Assembly (NCBI GenBank): GCA_029262535.1
Contig: JAJCZF010000083.1
Location: 37,094 to 101,093, forward strand
Reading direction: 5' to 3'
Source of the DNA: Deltaproteobacteria bacterium
GTDB lineage: Bacteria; Desulfobacterota; GWC2-55-46; JAJCZF01
DNA: 64,000 bases
The position numbers were made by a program, and so were the translations under genes. The notes below the pieces were generated by a model. It saw only the letters and a program-made list of their open reading frames with translations, searched no databases and was not told where the DNA came from. Below, one piece after another: positions 5,194-62,659 of the stretch (positions are counted from its first letter, which is position 1; each line of letters starts with the position of its first letter).

Positions 5194-7608
5194 CTAATCG
5201 GCGGCGCTCTCCGTCTCTATATCCACCTCTATCGTTGGCTCATCCGCGGCCTTAGACTTTTTGGATGTAGTTTTTCGGCTCTTCATTACCGTAGTCGCGG
5301 TTTCATCTTTTTGGGTCTTTTTAGCGGGTTTTCTGGTCCTGCGCCTCTCGGCGGCCTTGGCCTTTATCTCTGCCGCCAGCTCGTTGGCCTTGTCGTACTT
5401 CCACCTGACTACCTGGAAGTAGGGTATGATATTTGGAAGTTCGTCGAGCGCTATGATGCCGTTCTCGACCTTATAGAGGGCGTCTTTTATCATCGGTATA
5501 AGACCGTGATTCGTTGCGCTATCGTATAGCTCGTCAAAGGGGGCGTTTTGTATGATCAGTTTCTTACTCTCCACATCGACCAGCCATAACTCGAATACCG
5601 CAATCCTTCCCTTATGACCCATGAAGTTGCACTTCTCACAGCCCATGCCCTTTTTGAACTCGACATGCGAGGGTACTCCGTTGGGGTAGAATGAATCGAG
5701 TAGTTCCTTAGAGGGTTTGTGCGGGGCAAGGCAGTGGGGACAGTTTCTCTTTGCAAGTCTCTGGGCCAGTATCGAGACCATCTCCGCCGCTATTGTGCCC
5801 GAGACGAGGTCGAGGTCCATCAACCTCTGGATTGTCTCGACCGTATTGCTGACATGAAGGGTCGAGAATACAAGGTGCCCGGTCTGACTGGCGCGAAGGG
5901 CCTCCATCGCCGTCTCGCGGTCCCTTATCTCACCTACCAGTATGACATCGGGGTCCTCTCGCAGGAAGGCCCTGATCGCATCAGGGAAGCCGAAACCTAT
6001 CTCTTTCTTAACCTGCGACTGCTGAAGCCTCGTCACGGAATACTCAATCGGGTCCTCTATGGTCAGGACCTTCTTGGTTACGTCCTTACTGATAAGGCCG
6101 AGCGTCGAATAGAGGGTCGTCGTCTTTCCCGAACCGGTCGGGCCGACGATAAGGATCATGCCGGAAGGGTTTTGAATGACCTTACTGAAACGAGCCTCGA
6201 TATCGGGCATGAAACCGAGCTTTTCGAGCAGCATGGTGTTGGCCGATTGCTTAAGCAACCTTATGACGACATTCTCTCCGTGCAGCGTAGGCTGGGTCTG
6301 AACGCGAAAGTCGAATGTCATGTCGCCCATTCTGCGCCGAAAACGCCCTGCCTGGGGCAGACGGCGCTCGGCGATATTAATATCGGAGCTAATCTTTATA
6401 ACATTGACGACGCCGTTAATATTCTTTTTGGTTATGCGGATATCGTTATTATCATAGAGCGTGCCGTCGACGCGATATCTTATAAAAACATCTTTGTCGT
6501 ATGTCTCAAGATGTATATCCGAGGCCCCGGCCTTTATGGCCTGCACAAGCAGGGCGTTGGTGATCTTTTGATACTTCTTGGTCGTAACCTCGATAGACTC
6601 GATCTCGCCTTCGAATCCTTCGGTGATGGCCACATCCTCAAGAAAGTCGTCTGCTCCTTCCTCATCTTCCTGATCTTCTTCATCATGTTGAAGGCCTGAC
6701 GAGGCCTCGTCCACGAAGATATGCCTGAGTATCAGCGCTATATCTGAGTAAGTGGTGAGGTTGATATGCACGTGCGTGCAACCGAGCGCGGCCTTGAGGT
6801 CTTCGCTATCTATCGTCGGTTCGGCCGTTACGACGAAGATGGTGTCGCCCTCCCTCAAATAAGGCACGGTAGAGTTGTGTATACAAAAGGCCTTGGAGAG
6901 TTTTAGCGCAAGCTCTTTGTCGAGCATGGGCAGGAGGTCTTGTTGAGCGATAAGCGGGATGCGCCTCTGGGTGGAGAGCATCTTGAAGAAATCAACCTCG
7001 TTGACCTTGCCTGTCTCGATAAGGACCTTGCCGACCATACGCTGAGTCTTGCGACTCATGTAAAGGGCCTCTTCCATATCCTCATCGCTGACGTAACCGT
7101 CGCGGACGAGCACTTCTCCAATCCTCGCGCTTGAGACCCCCCTCTGCTGGAAGGTGGAATAACAGCGTTTTATTGAGGAATATACGTCCGGGTCTTCAAA
7201 GAGAAGGACATCTACCTTTCTCTTTACGAGCCCTGATAGCACTTCCAGCTCGTCGGGAGTAAGGTCGCTATTTGATGATACGAGCAGTATCTCGTCTCCA
7301 AGCGAGACGAGCGGCATAACAGCGTAACGCGTCGCAACCTCTTCGGTGATCCACGTAAGGACGCGCGGCTCGACCAGGTACTTGCCGGAGGGCAGGAAAT
7401 CGACATTATCCTTCTGTTCGCAGAGTATGCGAACAAGCGTCATAGTCTCGACAAAACCGCGCTTTACGAGGATCTTACCGAGCAGCTCGCCGGGGTTTAT
7501 ACTATATTCCTTATCCCCGTAAGACTGTATCTCAAGGGCAATACGCAGGTGATCCCTTGAGATATGCCCTTTTCTTATTAGAATTTCACCTAGCCTTGGC
7601 TTGGCCAT
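5194..7608 (-). CDS. GspE/PilB-family secretion ATPase with two N-terminal MshEN-like (T2SSE_N) modules and a Lys-rich C-terminal tail
   Basis: 804 aa. Walker A GPTGSGKTTT; Walker B/Asp box, His box and a tetracysteine (CPHC...CEKC) typical of the family. The N-terminus carries four copies of the 24-aa MshEN-type motif (RLGEILIRKGHISRDHLRIALEIQ, LLGKILVKRGFVETMTLVRILCEQ, RIGEVLVRDGYVSDEDMEEALYMS, MVGKVLIETGKVNEVDFFKMLSTQ). Confidence 0.85.
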   Translation of the reverse strand: MAKPRLGEILIRKGHISRDHLRIALEIQSYGDKEYSINPGELLGKILVKRGFVETMTLVRILCEQKDNVDFLPSGKYLVEPRVLTWITEEVATRYAVMPLVSLGDEILLVSSNSDLTPDELEVLSGLVKRKVDVLLFEDPDVYSSIKRCYSTFQQRGVSSARIGEVLVRDGYVSDEDMEEALYMSRKTQRMVGKVLIETGKVNEVDFFKMLSTQRRIPLIAQQDLLPMLDKELALKLSKAFCIHNSTVPYLREGDTIFVVTAEPTIDSEDLKAALGCTHVHINLTTYSDIALILRHIFVDEASSGLQHDEEDQEDEEGADDFLEDVAITEGFEGEIESIEVTTKKYQKITNALLVQAIKAGASDIHLETYDKDVFIRYRVDGTLYDNNDIRITKKNINGVVNVIKISSDINIAERRLPQAGRFRRRMGDMTFDFRVQTQPTLHGENVVIRLLKQSANTMLLEKLGFMPDIEARFSKVIQNPSGMILIVGPTGSGKTTTLYSTLGLISKDVTKKVLTIEDPIEYSVTRLQQSQVKKEIGFGFPDAIRAFLREDPDVILVGEIRDRETAMEALRASQTGHLVFSTLHVSNTVETIQRLMDLDLVSGTIAAEMVSILAQRLAKRNCPHCLAPHKPSKELLDSFYPNGVPSHVEFKKGMGCEKCNFMGHKGRIAVFELWLVDVESKKLIIQNAPFDELYDSATNHGLIPMIKDALYKVENGIIALDELPNIIPYFQVVRWKYDKANELAAEIKAKAAERRRTRKPAKKTQKDETATTVMKSRKTTSKKSKAADEPTIEVDIETESAAD

Positions 7609-7976
7609 GACCTCAATAACTCCCGGTTGAACGGACCAAAACGGTCCGCTTATGATACATCTAAAGCTTTTATCACGAAATCACTTGCTAAATCAAGAAC
7701 TTTTAAGAGATCAATAAAGGAGAATACGAAGGTTTGAGAAAGTCGGCTCTGCAACGTTGAATGGGCGAACTAAATACGGACGAGACGGCCTCCTGTAACT
7801 ATCAACTCATCGGCGAATAGGGAGCGTTTATGCGTCGAGAGCGTCCATGCGGACATCCTGCATTATTAGATTTATTTTTAAAGAGAGGGGTAGTAAGAAA
7901 TGTTTCTAAAAGCCTCTCAGCTTAGAAGAAAAACCGCTTCGCGTACTCTGGCCTTTCGCCCCAGACATAATTCCGT

Positions 7977-8008
7977 GCGCGAAATAAGAGCACACTTGTG
8001 TGCTTATT
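7977..8008. repeat. REP-like palindrome (CGCGAAATAAG-GCACAC-NN-GTGTGC-CTTATT family)
   Basis: gcgcgaaataagagcacacttgtgtgcttatt. The right arm overlaps the queH stop codon. Confidence 0.7.
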
Positions 8009-8558
8009 GGTTGATATTATAGCGTTCCATCCAGCTATAGATACAGCCGCAGTATTGCTGGCGGTAGAGTCCCATCTCTTTGCTCTCTTTTATTCCCTCC
8101 TGCCAGCCCTTTCTAAAGTCGCGGTAGAAGAACTCGACGTTGAACTCCGCGGCATATTTTTTGGCGAGAGCGCGCATCTGTTCGTGATCCTGGTATCTTG
8201 AATATAGTAGGGAGGAAGAGAACATATCAAAGCCGTTGTCGCGCGCGGCCTGGGCAACGGCGCGAAGGCGAATAGTATAACAGTGGCGGCAGCGGTCGTC
8301 CTTCGTGATCTCGCGTATGCGGTGACCGTCAGCGTCACGCACAAAAGCGGAGGCGTCGTAGTCGGGGCCGAAGATCACCTCGACATTCATCAGCTCCGAT
8401 AATTTCTTTACCGAGGCGAGCCGCTTGTCATGCTCTGCGCGAGGCTGTATATTAGGATTCCAGAAGAAACCGGCGACCTCGTATTCTCCCTTAAGCGCCT
8501 CCTTGAGCGGATATATCGAACACGGGCCGCAACAGATATGTACCAGTATCTTTTTCAT
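8004..8558 (-). CDS. queH: Epoxyqueuosine reductase QueH (DUF208 family)
   Basis: 184 aa. The N-terminal HICCGPCS motif and C-terminal YCGC Cys motif are characteristic of QueH. Confidence 0.8.
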   Translation of the reverse strand: MKKILVHICCGPCSIYPLKEALKGEYEVAGFFWNPNIQPRAEHDKRLASVKKLSELMNVEVIFGPDYDASAFVRDADGHRIREITKDDRCRHCYTIRLRAVAQAARDNGFDMFSSSLLYSRYQDHEQMRALAKKYAAEFNVEFFYRDFRKGWQEGIKESKEMGLYRQQYCGCIYSWMERYNINQ

Positions 8559-56509: not shown

Positions 56510-58651
56510 ATGAATACTAAAGACTTCGTAAAAGAGATAAAGCTTCATATAGAGGCCAGGTATCCGGTCCTTTGGCTCGTAAGCTTTGAAGAGCGACGCG
56601 TTGAAAAGGTCGTTGAAGAGCTTTGCAACAAGAGCGATACGCACTACTGGTCCTGGTCGGTCTCGCGCGGCCTTCGTAGCGGTAAGGACAGAAAGAAGGT
56701 CGAAAAGGTTGGACGCGAAAAGATCCTCACGACCATAGAAGAGAAGATAACAAAGAACGAAAATGTCAATAATCTCTTCGTCTTAAAGGATATCGCAACC
56801 TACTTCCACTCGCACGAGTTCCTGCGCAAGTTCCGCGATATACCGGAAATAACCGAAGAAAATCGCGCGCTTAATACCGTATGCATCCTTAGCCCGACGC
56901 TTAGCGAGATCCCGCCGGAGCTTGAAGAGGATATCGTCATAATCGAGCTGTCTCTGCCCGAATATGAAGAGATAGAAGAGCTAGTCCTAAAGACCTTTGG
57001 ACATATGATACCGAAAGAGTGGCACGATTCGACGCGCTCGGTCCTCTATAAGTCGCTTCAGGGCCTTTCTATGGATAATATCCGACGTGTTGTCAGAAAA
57101 GCGGTTAGCATCAACGATAATGTGCTAGACGAAAACTGCATCCAGTTCATACAGGACGAGAAACAACAGATAATAAAGAAGCAGCAGATACTCGACTACT
57201 ACCCGCACCGCGAGTCGATGGAGCATATCGGCGGCCTAGACGAGATAAAGAAGTGGTTCAACGAGCGTGAGCACGTATTTCGCCTCTCGAACGAGCGGAT
57301 CAACGGACTCGGCCTCGACATACCAAAAGGCCTGCTTCTCATAGGCGTACCCGGTTCGGGTAAATCTCTCTGCTGTAAGGCGCTTTCGGGCATATGGAAC
57401 CTTCCGCTCTTACGCATGGATGTCGGGCGTATATTCGGCTCTACCGTTGGTGAGTCGGAGAAGAATATACGCCGCTGCATCCAGCTGGCCGAGGCCGTAA
57501 GCCCGTGTATCCTCTGGATAGACGAGATAGACAAGGCATTTGGCGGCATACAGGGCTTTCAGGGCGACTCGGGCACGCAGCTGCGAGTATTCGGCACATT
57601 CATCACATGGCTTCAGGAGAAGGAAAAACCTGTCTTCGTCATCGCCACGGCGAACGAACCAAAGAACCTTCCGCCCGAACTATGGCGTAAGGGGCGTTAC
57701 GACGAGGTATTCTTTGTGGACCTGCCGAGCGCCGACGAGCGCGAGGATATCTTTAGGATACACCTCGAACGCAAAAACCAGGAGGTATCGCGCCTGAACC
57801 TTACCGACTTTGCCCAAAATAGCCAGGGCTATACCGGGGCCGAGATCGAACAGGCCGTAAAGGACGCCATCGTCGCCAACTTCAACAAGGTTCACGATGG
57901 CAGGAACTTCGAAGAGGCCGAAGACTTCATCAACGATATGGATACGATTGCCGTATCGCAGGACGAGATACTTGAGTCACTCAGGAATATCACGCCTCTA
58001 TCGGCCCTCAAGAAGGAAGAGATAGACGAGCTGCGCAAGTGGTCGCACCAGCGCGCACGCCCCGCCTCTCGCTCGCTCTTTCATCAGAGGGCGGAGTCAC
58101 TCAGCCCCGAAGAGCGTCGCAACCTCTCCATACACGAGGCGGGTCACACCATAACCATGTGGTATCATTTCAAAAAAGGTCCGGCATTCATGTCGATCGA
58201 TACCTACAAGGAATACGGCTCCTACCTGCCGATGGACGAGTCTTCCATGAAATCCTCCACAAAACGGGACCTTGAGAGGGAGATCGGCATAATACTCGGC
58301 GGCATGGTCGCAGAAGACGAGATGGGCGGGCTCGACTCGCGCACGGTCGGGGCCTCGCACGACCTCTCACAGGCCACGTCGCGCGCCAAGCAGATGGTCG
58401 TTGAATACGGTTTTGGCGATAATATCAGAAATACCAGCCTCATGGAGGTGCAGGACTACGCCCTCATATCGGGCCGCGAGATTTTGGAAGATATACAGAA
58501 GATAATAGATACGGCAAGGGAAGAGACCGAGGAGATAATAAACGAGAACAAAGAGGTCTTGGAAGCTCTCGTTCTATTACTCATCGAAAGCGTGCTCTTG
58601 AATCACGATGATATAGTACGCTTCTTTGCAAAACACCCTCTAAAGGACTGA
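56510..58651 (+). CDS. Soluble AAA+ ATPase (Ycf46-like N-terminus) fused to an FtsH-type M41 peptidase-like domain
   Basis: 713 aa with no TM segment. N-terminal IEARYPVLWLVSFEERRVE; Walker A GVPGSGKS (57344-57367); Walker B ILWIDEID; KGRYDEVFFVDLP; C-terminal HEAGH (58133-58147) and VGASHDLSQAT, as in FtsH. Confidence 0.85.
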   Translation: MNTKDFVKEIKLHIEARYPVLWLVSFEERRVEKVVEELCNKSDTHYWSWSVSRGLRSGKDRKKVEKVGREKILTTIEEKITKNENVNNLFVLKDIATYFHSHEFLRKFRDIPEITEENRALNTVCILSPTLSEIPPELEEDIVIIELSLPEYEEIEELVLKTFGHMIPKEWHDSTRSVLYKSLQGLSMDNIRRVVRKAVSINDNVLDENCIQFIQDEKQQIIKKQQILDYYPHRESMEHIGGLDEIKKWFNEREHVFRLSNERINGLGLDIPKGLLLIGVPGSGKSLCCKALSGIWNLPLLRMDVGRIFGSTVGESEKNIRRCIQLAEAVSPCILWIDEIDKAFGGIQGFQGDSGTQLRVFGTFITWLQEKEKPVFVIATANEPKNLPPELWRKGRYDEVFFVDLPSADEREDIFRIHLERKNQEVSRLNLTDFAQNSQGYTGAEIEQAVKDAIVANFNKVHDGRNFEEAEDFINDMDTIAVSQDEILESLRNITPLSALKKEEIDELRKWSHQRARPASRSLFHQRAESLSPEERRNLSIHEAGHTITMWYHFKKGPAFMSIDTYKEYGSYLPMDESSMKSSTKRDLEREIGIILGGMVAEDEMGGLDSRTVGASHDLSQATSRAKQMVVEYGFGDNIRNTSLMEVQDYALISGREILEDIQKIIDTAREETEEIINENKEVLEALVLLLIESVLLNHDDIVRFFAKHPLKD

Positions 58652-58659
58652 GGTGAGCC

Positions 58660-58998
58660 ATGTCATTTTTCACGGTTCTTAAGACCGAAATATCGAATAA
58701 GGATAATATGATCCTCGCCCTAAGATCTCTTGAAGAGTCGGGCGAGATACAGCGCCTCACCATCAACGAGGCAAAAGAGTCCATCGAAGTCGACCGCGAC
58801 GGCGACATCATGACGATTGAGAAGGAAAAGACCGGCACATACAATGTCGCAGGCAACAATACCGCCGTCGAACCCTTTTCAAAGAGACTCAAACAGATCT
58901 ACGCCTTGCAGACGATAAAGGAAAACCTGCCGCTCGACTTCGAGATATCGGAAGAGAGCGAGATAGCCGGAGAGATTCGGATTCTCCTAAAGGGATAA
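58660..58998 (+). CDS. DUF1257 (Ycf35)-like small protein
   Basis: 112 aa with GAGGTGAG RBS 8 nt after the upstream stop. The N-terminus MSFFTVLKTEISNKDNMILALRSLE resembles the remembered DUF1257 start MSHFTTIKT.I.D...L..AL.DLG. Confidence 0.65.
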   Translation: MSFFTVLKTEISNKDNMILALRSLEESGEIQRLTINEAKESIEVDRDGDIMTIEKEKTGTYNVAGNNTAVEPFSKRLKQIYALQTIKENLPLDFEISEESEIAGEIRILLKG

Positions 58999-58999
58999 T

Positions 59000-59200
59000 A
59001 TGGATAGAGAGATAAATATACGCATACTGCCGGACGGCAAGGTCGAAATCGACTCGACCGTCTTTAACGACTGCACAGAAGTCGCAAACCACCTCTCGAA
59101 ACATATCGGACAGGTCGAGTCCTTTCGGGTCAAAGAGGAACACGACCACTCCGACTCGAAGCTCGACAAGGGGGTAAAGGTGGATAAAAGCGATGGCTGA
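59000..59200 (+). CDS. DUF2997-like small protein
   Basis: 66 aa starting 1 nt after the upstream stop. INIRILPDGKVEIDS..F.DCTEV...L...IG resembles the remembered DUF2997 pattern. Confidence 0.55.
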   Translation: MDREINIRILPDGKVEIDSTVFNDCTEVANHLSKHIGQVESFRVKEEHDHSDSKLDKGVKVDKSDG

Positions 59201-59774
59201 CCAAGATAACGATATACGCATCAAGGCCCATGCCGTGCTCATGTCGAGCGACGTAAACGGGCCGGGAAGGCGCGCCGTTATATTCTTTCAGGGCTGCCCC
59301 TTCGACTGTGACGGCTGCTTCAACCCGGAGACACACTCCGAGTCGGACGGATATATGGTCAGCCCCAAAGAGATACTCGACGGCCTGCGTACCGACGAGA
59401 TAGAGGGTATCACCGTTAGCGGCGGCGACCCCTTTATGCAACCCGGCCCTCTTACCGAACTTCTGCGCCTTGCGCGCGACGAGTACGGGCTATCGACCGT
59501 CGTCTATACAGGTTACACGATAGAGCTCTTAAGAAAGAAAGCCGAGCTTGCAAGGCCGCTCGAATATATAGACGTTCTCATAGACGGCGGATTCGTGAGC
59601 CACCTGATGGAGCCCACGCTGCTTGCGCGCGGCTCGACCAACCAGCGCTTTCACTTTCTGACCGACTATTATGAGATAGGCGACTTCTACATGCCCTCAA
59701 AGGCCGAGATCGTAATACGGCCGGACGGCACCATTACCGGCACCGGCTTTAGAGAGACCCTTGGTCACCATTAA
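59193..59774 (+). CDS. NrdG/PflA-type radical-SAM activating enzyme
   Basis: 193 aa overlapping the upstream gene by 8 nt. NGPGRRAVIFFQGCPFDCDGCFNPETH carries CX3CX2C (59295-59318), and GITVSGGDPF is the SAM-binding GGE-like motif. Confidence 0.8.
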   Translation: MADQDNDIRIKAHAVLMSSDVNGPGRRAVIFFQGCPFDCDGCFNPETHSESDGYMVSPKEILDGLRTDEIEGITVSGGDPFMQPGPLTELLRLARDEYGLSTVVYTGYTIELLRKKAELARPLEYIDVLIDGGFVSHLMEPTLLARGSTNQRFHFLTDYYEIGDFYMPSKAEIVIRPDGTITGTGFRETLGHH

Positions 59775-59857: not shown

Positions 59858-62659
59858 ATGACCGAAGCTACCCCTGACGAGACATTTGAAGATATAAAGG
59901 CCATCTCCGACACCAAGGAGCGGAAGCTCGCCATGTTGCGCCTGCTCAAAGAGCTGGACGACTCCCCTTCAAACGCGCCTATATATGCCGGAGCCAAGGA
60001 GATCTTTTGTGCCCTTCCAGAGGAGGACGAGAAACGCGCGGCCCTGCACGAACTCATAATCTCGCTACCGATGGAGTCCTACTTTCTCGATATCTATCAC
60101 GACATCATATTCATCCTGCTCGACTCTGCCGAAAGGATCGAAGGCCAGAGATACCGTAAGTCTCAGCTCCTGCGTATCGCCAGCGAGATTCCTCTGGAGC
60201 CTGAATTTTTTCCTCTATTTAAAGACGCCATTAATCGCACCATCACGGCCTCTAACGCCTGCGACGAACTATTCGTAAGAAGGTACGCCCTCTTTAATAT
60301 AGCCGAACGCCTGCCCCTGGACGAAGAGTTTACCGAGATGCGCTACCGCGCCCTCTCGCTCGCGCTCGGCCTCTCAGACGAAGCACCGGAGCGCAGAGAC
60401 TCATGGGAGCTACTTGCATTTGAGCTACCCAAGGTATGCGACTATACTTTTTTCGTAGATAATACATTTCTGGGCATTGCCATCAGGATGCCCAAGACCG
60501 GTGTCTTTCGCCCCCTCTATATGCAGGCCATTGAGATTGCGCTTGAGGCCTCCGACCATATGGAGGAGCCCTATTTTAAAAAATACGCCCTGCTATACAT
60601 AGCGAAATCCCTTCCTAAGGAAGAGGTCTTCGAACCTCTCTACAGAAGGGCGCTCGAAAAGACCTGTGAAGCGGCAATGGATATCCGCGATCCTTTCATC
60701 AACCACATCACAGTGCTTGAGATACTCGAAGTATTACCAAAGACAGAGGCCTATTACCCGCTGATACTAACGCTCATAGAAAAGGTCCTGCCATTTTACT
60801 CGGTTAAGAGCAGGATAGACGACGTGGCGCTCCTGGACGTAATAGACTACATCATCATCGCCGAAGAACGCAAGATCGGCGAATCCAAAAAGAATCGCTA
60901 TACGCGCGAATCATACGCCAGAACATTTGCAAAAGTCCTGCTCTCCTTCGGTCTCGACCTGACCGACGTGCGCTTTATCGAACCTCTAAAACCCTATACG
61001 CATGTATGGATAAAACCCCCGGAACTTCGCGAAGCGGCCAGCAAGGTCGTCAACCACCTCGAAGGGCTAAAGACCCTCTACCACGGCGCAGAGCTACTGC
61101 GTCCCTTAATGGTATCGGAGAAACATCGCGGCGAAGAAGGCTTGTACCGGGGTATGAAAGAGGACGCCACGATGCGCGAGGCGAGCGACACAATCGTCAT
61201 CGACATCGGCGCGTCAAATACCATCATCATGAAAAAACGCCTCAAAGGGCGCGCAAACTATGTAGAGTTCAACGAGATATCGAGACGTTTCGGAGATGTC
61301 GTCACCATCCCTACCGTCTACAACGAACGCACCGACACCATCGGCACGGCGGCCTTAGAAGACGACGCCTCCCGTAAAGGTGTTAACATAAAAAAACTGC
61401 TTATCGGCGGCAACCCGCGCGGACGCGACCAGATGGCCCATTTCTTTAACCTCTTATTCGAGCGCATAAAGGAAGAACTCCAGCCGCGCGGCTGGAGAAA
61501 GATCATCTCAAGCGCACCGAGTGAGACATTTTATATAACCGTGCCGGTCGGCCTCACCGACTACAAAAACCGCCTCAAGGATATCATCACCGCCGAGGCA
61601 AAGGGCATACAGGCCGAGTTTATCGAAGAGCCGCTGGCCGCCGCCATAGGTTATCAGGTCGCCGAAGAGAGCGAAAAGCTTGTTATGCTGATGGACTTCG
61701 GCGGCTGTACGCTCGACGTCATGGCGCTTCGCATCTCGAGCGGGACCGTTCATGTCGTAGCCAAACCGGATCGCTCACAGCTCGTCGGCGGTCAGGATAT
61801 CGATTACTGGTTGGCCGAATACCTTGGCGAACGCGCCGAGCTGTCGGTCATCGGCAGCGAGCCGCACGCGGCCCTCATCAAAAAGGCGGAAGCGCTGAAG
61901 ATCGCTCTCTCGTCTCACCATGAAGTCCCCTTCGTATGGGAAGGTAGTGAACTCTTCAAGGTAACGCTACAGGATTTTGAAGAGCTACTTCAGGACCGCG
62001 ACTTCTACCGCACCGTGGACCGCGCCGCCTCCTTCGTGCTGGCAAAGTGCGCCAAGGTCGGCATCAAGACCGAGAACTTCGAGGCCGTGCTCCTAACGGG
62101 CGGCTCTAGCCAGATACCGTCCTTCAAGGAGAAGGTCGGCCATCTCTTCCCCGCGCTAAGGCGGACAAACGCGATATACGACCACAGCCCGCTATCTGCC
62201 GTCGCAACCGGCGCGGCCTACTACGGCACGCGCGACGTGGTAGACCGCCACCTCGCAATCGCATATGCCGTAAAATATGTAACCGGCGAAAAGAAGATCG
62301 CTCACGAACTGATACTGGAAAAAGGCGAACCCCTGCCCTTCGAACGCACCTTCCGCGCAGACCCCGCCCAAACACTCGGAGAACAGAACCAGATCTCAAT
62401 TGAACTATACGAGATCCCCGACGCCCTGATAACGAGACGCTGGGAGCTGACCGGCGGATTCGAATATATAAAACAGGTAATAAAAGAGTCCGAAGATACC
62501 GAAGATATAGAACTAAAACCGCTAAAGATAATCACCCTGCCCTACAACCGCGAGATCACCGGCGAAGAGGAGGTAACCTTCGTACTCGACGAAACCGGCC
62601 GCCTCAAGATCAAATACGATAAAGGTAAAGAAGTCGATTCGGGGATAAGGCTGCAGTAA
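59858..62659 (+). CDS. Helical-repeat domain fused to an Hsp70/DnaK-like ATPase with lidless beta substrate-binding-like domain
   Basis: 933 aa. Hsp70 motifs IVIDIGASNT, FYITVPVG, EEPLAAAIGY, MLMDFGGCTLDV, GGQDID, VLLTGGSSQIPSF and PLSAVATGAAYYG. The N-terminal 430 aa contain about 8 repeats of a ~40-aa unit. Confidence 0.8.
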   Translation: MTEATPDETFEDIKAISDTKERKLAMLRLLKELDDSPSNAPIYAGAKEIFCALPEEDEKRAALHELIISLPMESYFLDIYHDIIFILLDSAERIEGQRYRKSQLLRIASEIPLEPEFFPLFKDAINRTITASNACDELFVRRYALFNIAERLPLDEEFTEMRYRALSLALGLSDEAPERRDSWELLAFELPKVCDYTFFVDNTFLGIAIRMPKTGVFRPLYMQAIEIALEASDHMEEPYFKKYALLYIAKSLPKEEVFEPLYRRALEKTCEAAMDIRDPFINHITVLEILEVLPKTEAYYPLILTLIEKVLPFYSVKSRIDDVALLDVIDYIIIAEERKIGESKKNRYTRESYARTFAKVLLSFGLDLTDVRFIEPLKPYTHVWIKPPELREAASKVVNHLEGLKTLYHGAELLRPLMVSEKHRGEEGLYRGMKEDATMREASDTIVIDIGASNTIIMKKRLKGRANYVEFNEISRRFGDVVTIPTVYNERTDTIGTAALEDDASRKGVNIKKLLIGGNPRGRDQMAHFFNLLFERIKEELQPRGWRKIISSAPSETFYITVPVGLTDYKNRLKDIITAEAKGIQAEFIEEPLAAAIGYQVAEESEKLVMLMDFGGCTLDVMALRISSGTVHVVAKPDRSQLVGGQDIDYWLAEYLGERAELSVIGSEPHAALIKKAEALKIALSSHHEVPFVWEGSELFKVTLQDFEELLQDRDFYRTVDRAASFVLAKCAKVGIKTENFEAVLLTGGSSQIPSFKEKVGHLFPALRRTNAIYDHSPLSAVATGAAYYGTRDVVDRHLAIAYAVKYVTGEKKIAHELILEKGEPLPFERTFRADPAQTLGEQNQISIELYEIPDALITRRWELTGGFEYIKQVIKESEDTEDIELKPLKIITLPYNREITGEEEVTFVLDETGRLKIKYDKGKEVDSGIRLQ

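Follow-up and report, generated by a model that had tools for sequence, protein, structure and literature searches.

A five-gene AAA+ protease/Hsp70-like cassette contains an activase-class radical-SAM protein in genomes without glycyl-radical enzymes

Activases of the NrdG/PflA type, which use the chemistry of radical S-adenosylmethionine (SAM) proteins, are regarded as obligate partners of enzymes that carry a glycyl radical. A different association is described for the FtsH ternary system, for which Kaur, Burroughs, Iyer & Aravind (2020, eLife; PMC7159879) predict that the radical-SAM component modifies a peptide encoded nearby; and in cyanobacteria the genes for DUF2997 and ycf35 (DUF1257) together adjoin the ferredoxin gene fed7 (PMC4284462). 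Here we describe a NrdG/PflA-type radical-SAM protein (hereafter rSAM) of 193 amino acids (aa), encoded in a stretch of 64,000 nucleotides (nt) of contig JAJCZF010000083.1 from a Deltaproteobacteria bacterium (GCA_029262535.1; this whole stretch is called the window, and its positions serve as coordinates). The protein is a fixed and strictly linked component of a five-gene module that also encodes an AAA+ protease and an Hsp70-like ATPase. A literature search found no paper on this five-gene cassette and found rSAM proteins in FtsH-type systems only in Kaur et al. 2020. The host assembly comprises 2.2 Mb in 87 contigs and is 88% complete.

We lean, with a modest degree of belief, towards the view that the rSAM is a working enzyme of the activase class that was recruited from ribonucleotide reductase to the five-gene AAA+/Hsp70 module, where it abstracts hydrogen from a protein substrate. 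The gene is intact, under purifying selection and of the activase class. Its open reading frame (ORF) contains VNGPGRRAVIFFQGCPFDCDGCFNPE, with the GCxxxCxxC-NP signature near the N-terminus that an earlier note on this DNA had read as NrdG/PflA-like, a reading borne out by the ORF, by the sequence itself (the cluster region is FFQGC35PFDC39DGC42FNP) and by Pfam (Fer4_12, 2.5e-33; Radical_SAM, 4.9e-11). The CxxxCxxC, GG(D/E)P and GSxNQ motifs are invariant in the alignments of the clade and its relatives, and the protein shows the sequence features of the activase class, that is, CxxxCxxC together with GGE/GGDP and, ahead of the cluster motif, a (D/N)GxGxR loop. Within this loop, G23, P24, G25 and R27 are invariant in 76 members of the rSAM clade, and among NrdD-independent relatives G23 and R27 are present in 44/44 and P24 and G25 in 43/44. 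The top NCBIfam model is TIGR02491 (NrdG) at 116.9 bits, slightly below the equivalog cut-off of 126.1, with scores far below this for the PflA, YjjW, QueE and viperin models; the rSAM reaches 23-28 bits against QueE (cut-offs 260-300) and 16.9 against viperin (cut-off 180), which leaves it outside both families, and matches the pVip models weakly (E 2.6e-5 and 1.8e-4).

The predicted structure is consistent with this assignment. An AlphaFold2 (AF2) model built from a 76-sequence alignment has a mean predicted local distance difference test score (pLDDT) of 87.9, with a very confident core and a weak stretch of ~13 residues at the end. By this model the fold resembles that of a solved activase: the best Foldseek match is the pyruvate formate-lyase (PFL) activating enzyme PFL-AE (3CB8_A, with peptide and AdoMet; E 7.8e-8, TMq 0.54), and viperins come second (E ~1e-4). 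A profile search of the PDB likewise returned PFL-AE (3C8F, 6.5e-15), with the rSAM residues vnGPGkR aligned to VDGPGIR. The (D/N)GxGxR loop of PFL-AE is said to contact the glycine loop of its substrate.

The rSAM occurs in genomes without any glycyl-radical enzyme. Profile searches for NrdD (TIGR02487), NRDD (PF13597) and Gly_radical (PF01228), whose positive controls (E. coli, B. thetaiotaomicron and others) matched, found none of the three in the whole assembly, window included. The expression R[VIT]xG[FYW] matched only RuvC and one spurious frame in the window and, near C-termini genome-wide, only DNA polymerase I (PolA). The earlier note had stated that no NrdD, PFL or other protein with an RVxG(F/Y/W) motif occurs in the 64 kb; this holds, and extends to the whole genome at its present completeness, the genome-wide search for nrdD- and pfl-like genes that the note had proposed having found none, so that the genome holds no NrdD that might lack an NrdG of its own. 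The host does carry a PF02867-type ribonucleotide reductase, so that its dNTP supply does not require class III. Among 16 related genomes with the rSAM clade, NrdD is absent in 13 (most of them 98-100% complete, one a complete single contig), and it was not found in a seventeenth cassette genome (G001, which holds locus L001). The remaining three have an NrdD homologue with the radical loop RITNY in place of RITGY, and no NrdG2-type activase above the cut-off was found in them. PFL-type glycyl-radical domains occur in 3/17 genomes, with an activase-like rSAM match on the same contig for two. Genomes of another genus in the phylum have a normal adjacent nrdD-nrdG pair, and in other taxa most NrdGs lie within 310 bp of nrdD.

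Two observations on NrdD itself may be recorded here. The RITNY homologues (L143:3674-5788 in genome G024; L211 and L212 in G065 and G101) come from genomes of one family, with the radical glycine changed to asparagine in all three, and may be a glycine-less NrdD-like protein; service of the cassette rSAM to NrdD in these three genomes was considered and rejected because their NrdD lacks the radical glycine. In genus g78, the last ~30 positions of the NrdD model, which include the glycyl-radical loop, match a short frame of their own in the interval from nrdD to nrdG (G344:C4:167383-167478 and equivalents), and the main NrdD match is itself in two parts within one frame, an arrangement that could reflect a split gene, an insertion or a frameshift.

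The genomic setting of the rSAM is strongly conserved. Numerous relatives of ~190 aa, 50-59% identical, were found by protein search in metagenome-assembled genomes (MAGs) labelled Deltaproteobacteria, Nitrospirota and Spirochaetota, and on every contig examined the gene order was AAA+::M41 (~711 aa), 112-aa protein, ~60-aa protein, rSAM and Hsp70-like protein (860-940 aa). With tblastn, the five genes were recovered in the same order, as far as the contigs reach, at 22 independent loci (identities ~70% for AAA::M41, 57% for the 112-aa protein, 60% for the small protein, 53% for the rSAM and 42% for Hsp70); the exceptions are one locus (L130) without the Hsp70 gene and some that end at a contig edge. 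The hosts, all of them uncultured MAGs, come from groundwater and sediment and carry the labels Deltaproteobacteria, Thermodesulfobacteriota and Nitrospirota. The genes that flank the cassette differ from locus to locus (in the window they encode flagellin and lipoproteins), and the non-conservation of the adjacency, which the earlier note had named, together with clustering with housekeeping NrdG, as evidence against its reading, is contradicted by a five-gene order kept at 22 loci with unrelated flanks. The clade's version of the rSAM is present in 16/401 genomes sampled across the phylum and, within the order to which the window belongs, in 63/77 genomes, or 42/50 of those of high quality.

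Individual loci show further variation. At one (L138, ~6500-8050, genome G098), an otherwise normal cassette is interrupted by a DNA methyltransferase gene (SPPY motif) between the genes for the rSAM and the Hsp70-like protein; at another (L090:1-2702), in a MAG with cassette proteins labelled Nitrospirota by NCBI, Wadjet/Mks-like genes (SbcC-like ATPase, MksE/JetB and DUF3375) are found 2.5 kb away from the cassette.

The rSAM is not the activase of ribonucleotide reductase and stands phylogenetically apart from the NrdD-linked NrdGs. In a tree of 91 sequences (quick search; support as Shimodaira-Hasegawa-like approximate likelihood-ratio test, SH-aLRT, only), a branch with a support of 96 parts the side of the rSAM from all 35 NrdD-adjacent NrdGs, and the phylogenetic placement suggested in the earlier note thus shows no clustering with housekeeping NrdG. 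The 22 cassette rSAMs are monophyletic (SH-aLRT 98), and their side of the tree, which holds no NrdD-adjacent member, also includes the sister proteins at loci L139, L140 and L152 (which adjoin a Ycf46-like AAA+ protein without M41), a stand-alone group of ten, a Comamonas protein (L033) and several others. In genomes with second-tier rSAMs, NrdD is paired with its own adjacent NrdG2-type activase.

This side of the tree corresponds to a wider NrdD-independent subfamily, to which the rSAM belongs and whose hallmark is a C-terminal extension with [T/S]-G-[F]. In an alignment of 44 NrdD-independent with 14 NrdD-adjacent sequences, the extension (~35 aa) is present in every NrdD-independent sequence not cut by a contig end and missing from the NrdD-adjacent NrdGs, and the catalytic motifs are invariant or almost so on both sides. 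G185 and F186 are invariant in the 76 members of the rSAM clade; among relatives, all 43 sequences long enough to cover this column keep G185, while the residue before it is T/S in 33/44 and the residue after it F in 30 and in most other cases I, V or M. AF2 predicts strands at residues 152-155, 172-175 and 181-184 of the extension, with the pLDDT falling from 98 to ~55 at residues 181-190.

By analogy with its relatives, the rSAM would bind a [4Fe-4S] cluster and SAM and generate a 5'-deoxyadenosyl radical, which may then take hydrogen from a backbone position, most probably a glycine C-alpha, of a protein presented within the AAA+/Hsp70 machine; the installed radical or modification might in turn gate or mark the substrate of the machine. 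Our first choice of target would be a cassette protein, that is, either the ~60-aa protein encoded upstream, favoured because of the gene order and the published idea of peptide modification, or the AAA+ ATPase, favoured because it is the partner common to the sister systems. The rSAM's own flexible C-terminal T-G-F tail would be the second choice, because it is the sole element common to the whole subfamily and resembles RITGY and RVSGY, and a client encoded elsewhere would be the third.

Several observations weigh against this account. No canonical RVxG[FYW] loop or Gly_radical domain was found in the cassette proteins. In the sister systems, neither of the small proteins was detected at L139, only weak ORFs resembling the 112-aa protein were seen at L140 and L152, and no DUF2997-like ORF was found at any of these three loci. 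No conserved neighbour was found for the ten rSAMs of the stand-alone sister clade, which suggests that the substrate of the subfamily may not be encoded nearby. It is also conceivable that the active site is closed off by the C-terminal extension, as would suit a small-molecule substrate. As to candidates within the cassette, the screen for a glycyl-radical loop surfaced nothing beyond the TGF of the rSAM itself and generic motifs of AAA, M41 and Hsp70 proteins.

One alternative is that the rSAM is simply a normal NrdG, serving an anaerobic ribonucleotide reductase whose nrdD lies elsewhere or is missing from an incomplete MAG; the assembly is indeed only 88% complete, NrdG is the best NCBIfam match (116.9 against 126.1) and identity to NrdD-adjacent NrdGs is 37-46%, but NrdD is lacking from 13/16 clade genomes, most of them nearly complete or complete, and from G001, the three NrdD homologues have no radical glycine, the tree splits the two groups, the genome has a PF02867 reductase and the cassette context is kept at 22 loci, so that this possibility is already largely refuted and we consider it very improbable. 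It is unlikely that the rSAM is instead a small-molecule enzyme like QueE or viperin, making a modified nucleotide or metabolite as a signal or toxin for the AAA+/Hsp70 module, which would in that case be the effector of a conflict system. Weak matches to the QueE, pVip and viperin families and the place of viperins as second structural neighbours (E ~1e-4) point in this direction, as does the model, in which the lateral opening could be sealed by the extension instead of being filled by a large protein substrate; Kaur et al. 2020 treat the rSAM of related FtsH-type conflict systems as an effector-side component. Occasional neighbours (the Wadjet-like genes at one locus, the methyltransferase insertion at another and a toxin-antitoxin pair in a variant operon) keep a conflict-system role alive. 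Against this, the rSAM retains the (D/N)GxGxR loop that characterizes activases acting on a protein glycine, NrdG and PFL-AE are far closer than QueE or viperin, and a cassette near-universal in one order, with a protease ~70% identical across phyla, is unlike fast-evolving and patchy defence. PADLOC matched no system on the cassette (only a generic IetA-like AAA and a weak pVip), and a known defence system was rejected on these grounds. Given that ~80% of one order carry the cassette and that its protease has 301 invariant residues, it looks more like a core physiological machine for proteostasis or regulation in anaerobes than like patchy phage defence.

Another possibility is that the substrate lies in the rSAM itself, the T-G-F of its tail (V-S-G-F-P in the sisters) being a built-in glycyl-radical loop or a pseudo-substrate, in which case the protein would serve as a self-contained carrier of a radical or be an activase under autoinhibition. 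The extension with its invariant glycine is the only feature common to every NrdD-independent relative, whatever its neighbours, and the stand-alone clade has no conserved partner; the residue before the glycine is T/S and the one after it usually F, a pattern similar to the NrdD loop RITGY and the PFL loop RVSGY, and the low pLDDT of the tail (~55) suggests flexibility. However, a glycyl radical on a flexible tail would be unshielded, unlike in known enzymes, about one-third of the relatives have I, V, M, W or H after the glycine, and the glycine may be merely structural (for example, a turn that closes the SAM pocket). We regard this as quite unlikely, and as equally so a version that covers the entire NrdD-independent subfamily, in which each protein would carry its own substrate as a self-charging radical, generated in cis or, between the subunits of an oligomer, in trans, that is passed to or sensed by the AAA+::M41/Hsp70 machine, with use as an oxygen-cleavable switch as one possibility. 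Finally, the rSAM could lack a true substrate and act as a redox- or oxygen-sensing Fe-S subunit, the state of its cluster or uncoupled cleavage of SAM regulating the protease-chaperone machine. The [4Fe-4S] clusters of activases are oxygen-labile, and the hosts are MAGs from groundwater and sediment. The adjacency of DUF2997 and DUF1257 genes to a ferredoxin gene in cyanobacteria (PMC4284462) would also fit a redox role. We give this idea little credence, given that all SAM-binding and substrate-loop motifs are invariant, which argues for real catalysis over sensing only. Hydrogen abstraction from a protein substrate presented by the module thus remains the account that we prefer.

The gene directly upstream of the rSAM ends GAT GGC TGA, and the ATG of the rSAM is at 59193; the two genes have 8 nt in common (ATGGCTGA), and a Shine-Dalgarno-like GGTGG lies 9 nt upstream of the start. 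The overlap, which the earlier note had reported, is real and peculiar to this locus: at other loci the two genes do not overlap and are separated by 2-166 nt, so that tight linkage is general and the overlap local. Against Pfam DUF2997 the 66-aa protein scores 20.9 bits (cut-off 24.1; E 3.3e-4), and in its family of ~60-aa proteins (22 loci) D24-C25 and G13 are invariant.

The remaining cassette proteins are similarly constrained (Table 1). In the AAA+::M41 protein, HEAGH is invariant, and 301/713 residues are invariant over 20 loci with several phylum labels (~70% identity). JGI names its relatives 'SpoVK/Ycf46/Vps4 family', and the Ycf46 label used here rests partly on such source names. 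The 112-aa protein has an AF2 model with a pLDDT of 91.5, a small alpha/beta domain for which a PDB search gave no match informative on function; 12/60 members of its family have weak DUF1257 matches. The family appears cassette-specific. The helical-repeat::Hsp70 protein is kept at 20 loci with ~42% identity.

Two side observations concern these proteins. After Walker B, residues 347-354 of the AAA+::M41 protein (57548-57571) read G-(I/V)-(G/S/T)-G-(Y/F)-Q-G-D in 20/20 cassette ATPases; this small-Gly-aromatic loop was set aside as an rSAM target, being not kept in the sister AAA proteins at L139 and L152. The 112-aa family comprises ~64 clusters in a collection of 5.8 billion proteins, all of 105-113 aa save two short fragments, and none of these clusters carries a Pfam annotation.

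Table 1. Coordinates of the cassette genes and of the features of the rSAM
Feature	Position	Strand	Evidence
Soluble AAA+::M41 (FtsH-clade) ATPase-protease, 713 aa, Ycf46-type N-domain	56510..58651	+	Pfam AAA, Peptidase_M41; phrog_8638 2e-131
112-aa alpha/beta protein, distantly DUF1257-like	58660..58998	+	phrog_20456 3.8e-7; weak DUF1257 matches
66-aa DUF2997-like protein, directly upstream of the rSAM	59000..59200	+	Pfam DUF2997 sub-threshold; conserved in 22 loci
NrdG/PflA-type rSAM protein, 193 aa	59193..59774	+	ORF; Pfam; NCBIfam; AF2; Foldseek
N22-G-P-G-R-R27 loop, (D/N)GxGxR motif of glycyl-radical-enzyme activases	59256..59273	+	alignment
C35-x3-C39-x2-C42, predicted [4Fe-4S] cluster-binding motif	59295..59318	+	sequence read directly; invariant
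G77-G-D-P80, predicted SAM-binding motif (GGE/GGDP)	59421..59432	+	G77, G78, P80 invariant
C-terminal extension, residues 152-193, absent from NrdD-adjacent NrdGs	59646..59771	+	alignment; AF2
T184-G185-F186, Gly-aromatic tail motif	59742..59750	+	alignment
Helical-repeat::Hsp70-type ATPase, 933 aa, last cassette gene	59858..62659	+	Pfam HSP70, MreB_Mbl on residues 554-789

Outside the cassette, relatives of the rSAM occur in other operons. One sister locus (L152, 7029-14885, genome G268) encodes DUF2786/DUF7168, a NrdG-like rSAM, a Ycf46-like AAA protein (496 aa, no M41), a helical+WD40 protein (872 aa), a GrpE-like protein and an Hsp70-like protein (529 aa); a 1033-aa ankyrin-repeat protein is encoded upstream of it on the opposite strand. 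Another (L139, 1334-7001, genome G370) encodes an rSAM, a Ycf46-like AAA protein, a RelE/ParE-like toxin with a small upstream partner and a helical+WD40 protein (851 aa), and at L140 an ORF like that of the 112-aa protein lies between rSAM and AAA. The Comamonas locus (L033) has rSAM, fvmX5, AAA::M41 and fvmX7, that is, an FtsH ternary system of the published type. More than 30 IMG/VR viral contigs (L168-L198) encode a Ycf46-like N-domain and AAA that share 28-39% identity with the cassette ATPase over its residues 1-520; an M41 domain is absent from these viral proteins, and neither an rSAM nor an Hsp70 gene was found within 8 kb of them. On one of the contigs (L179), a weak 112-aa-like ORF directly follows the AAA gene. 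A phage origin of the cassette was rejected, given that the viral Ycf46-like AAA genes have no adjacent rSAM or Hsp70.

A large conserved branch of activases is thus found in genomes without a glycyl-radical enzyme and tied to AAA+ proteases and Hsp70-like ATPases in at least three operon architectures. Identification of its substrate would either reveal a novel radical or post-translational modification of proteins or extend radical-SAM chemistry to protein quality control or conflict systems. The C-terminal T-G-F motif that defines the subfamily offers a concrete target for mutagenesis, and the cassette provides a testable handle on the unexplained Ycf46/DUF1257/DUF2997 gene set, which has relatives in cyanobacteria, plastids and phages.

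Compared with known systems, the rSAM shares with NrdG its size class, fold and the (D/N)GxGxR, CxxxCxxC, GG(D/E)P, TG(Y/F) and GSxNQ motifs (37-46% identity), yet it scores under the TIGR02491 cut-off, has no NrdD partner in its own genome or in most genomes of the clade, falls across the split with an SH-aLRT of 96, carries the additional ~35-aa extension with [T/S]-G-[F] and sits in a protease-chaperone cassette. PflA (3C8F, 3CB8) is the closest solved structure by profile and fold, and its DGPGxR loop aligns; however, only ~130 residues are alignable, PflA has 245 aa with a full partial barrel, and the genome of the rSAM has no PFL-type enzyme. With the FtsH ternary system, the cassette shares a NrdG/PflA-like rSAM adjoining a soluble FtsH-type AAA+::M41, and the Comamonas representative lies on the same NrdD-independent side of the tree. 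That system is characterized by neighbouring MoxR, vWA, double-AAA FtsH and fvmX-domain proteins; Pfam detected no fvmX, MoxR or vWA in the five cassette proteins of the window, which places them outside it, and the cassette differs in its Ycf46-type N-domain and in its DUF1257-like, DUF2997-like and helical-repeat::Hsp70 partners; the rSAMs of the two systems are ~42% identical and do not form sister clades. With the Ycf46/Ycf35(DUF1257)/DUF2997 set of cyanobacteria, plastids and phages, the cassette shares an AAA+ N-domain and ATPase that match phrog_8638, and small proteins that are weakly alike. The association of a NrdG/PflA-like rSAM with an FtsH-clade AAA+ protein is a recurring theme, of which the present cassette is a new arrangement.

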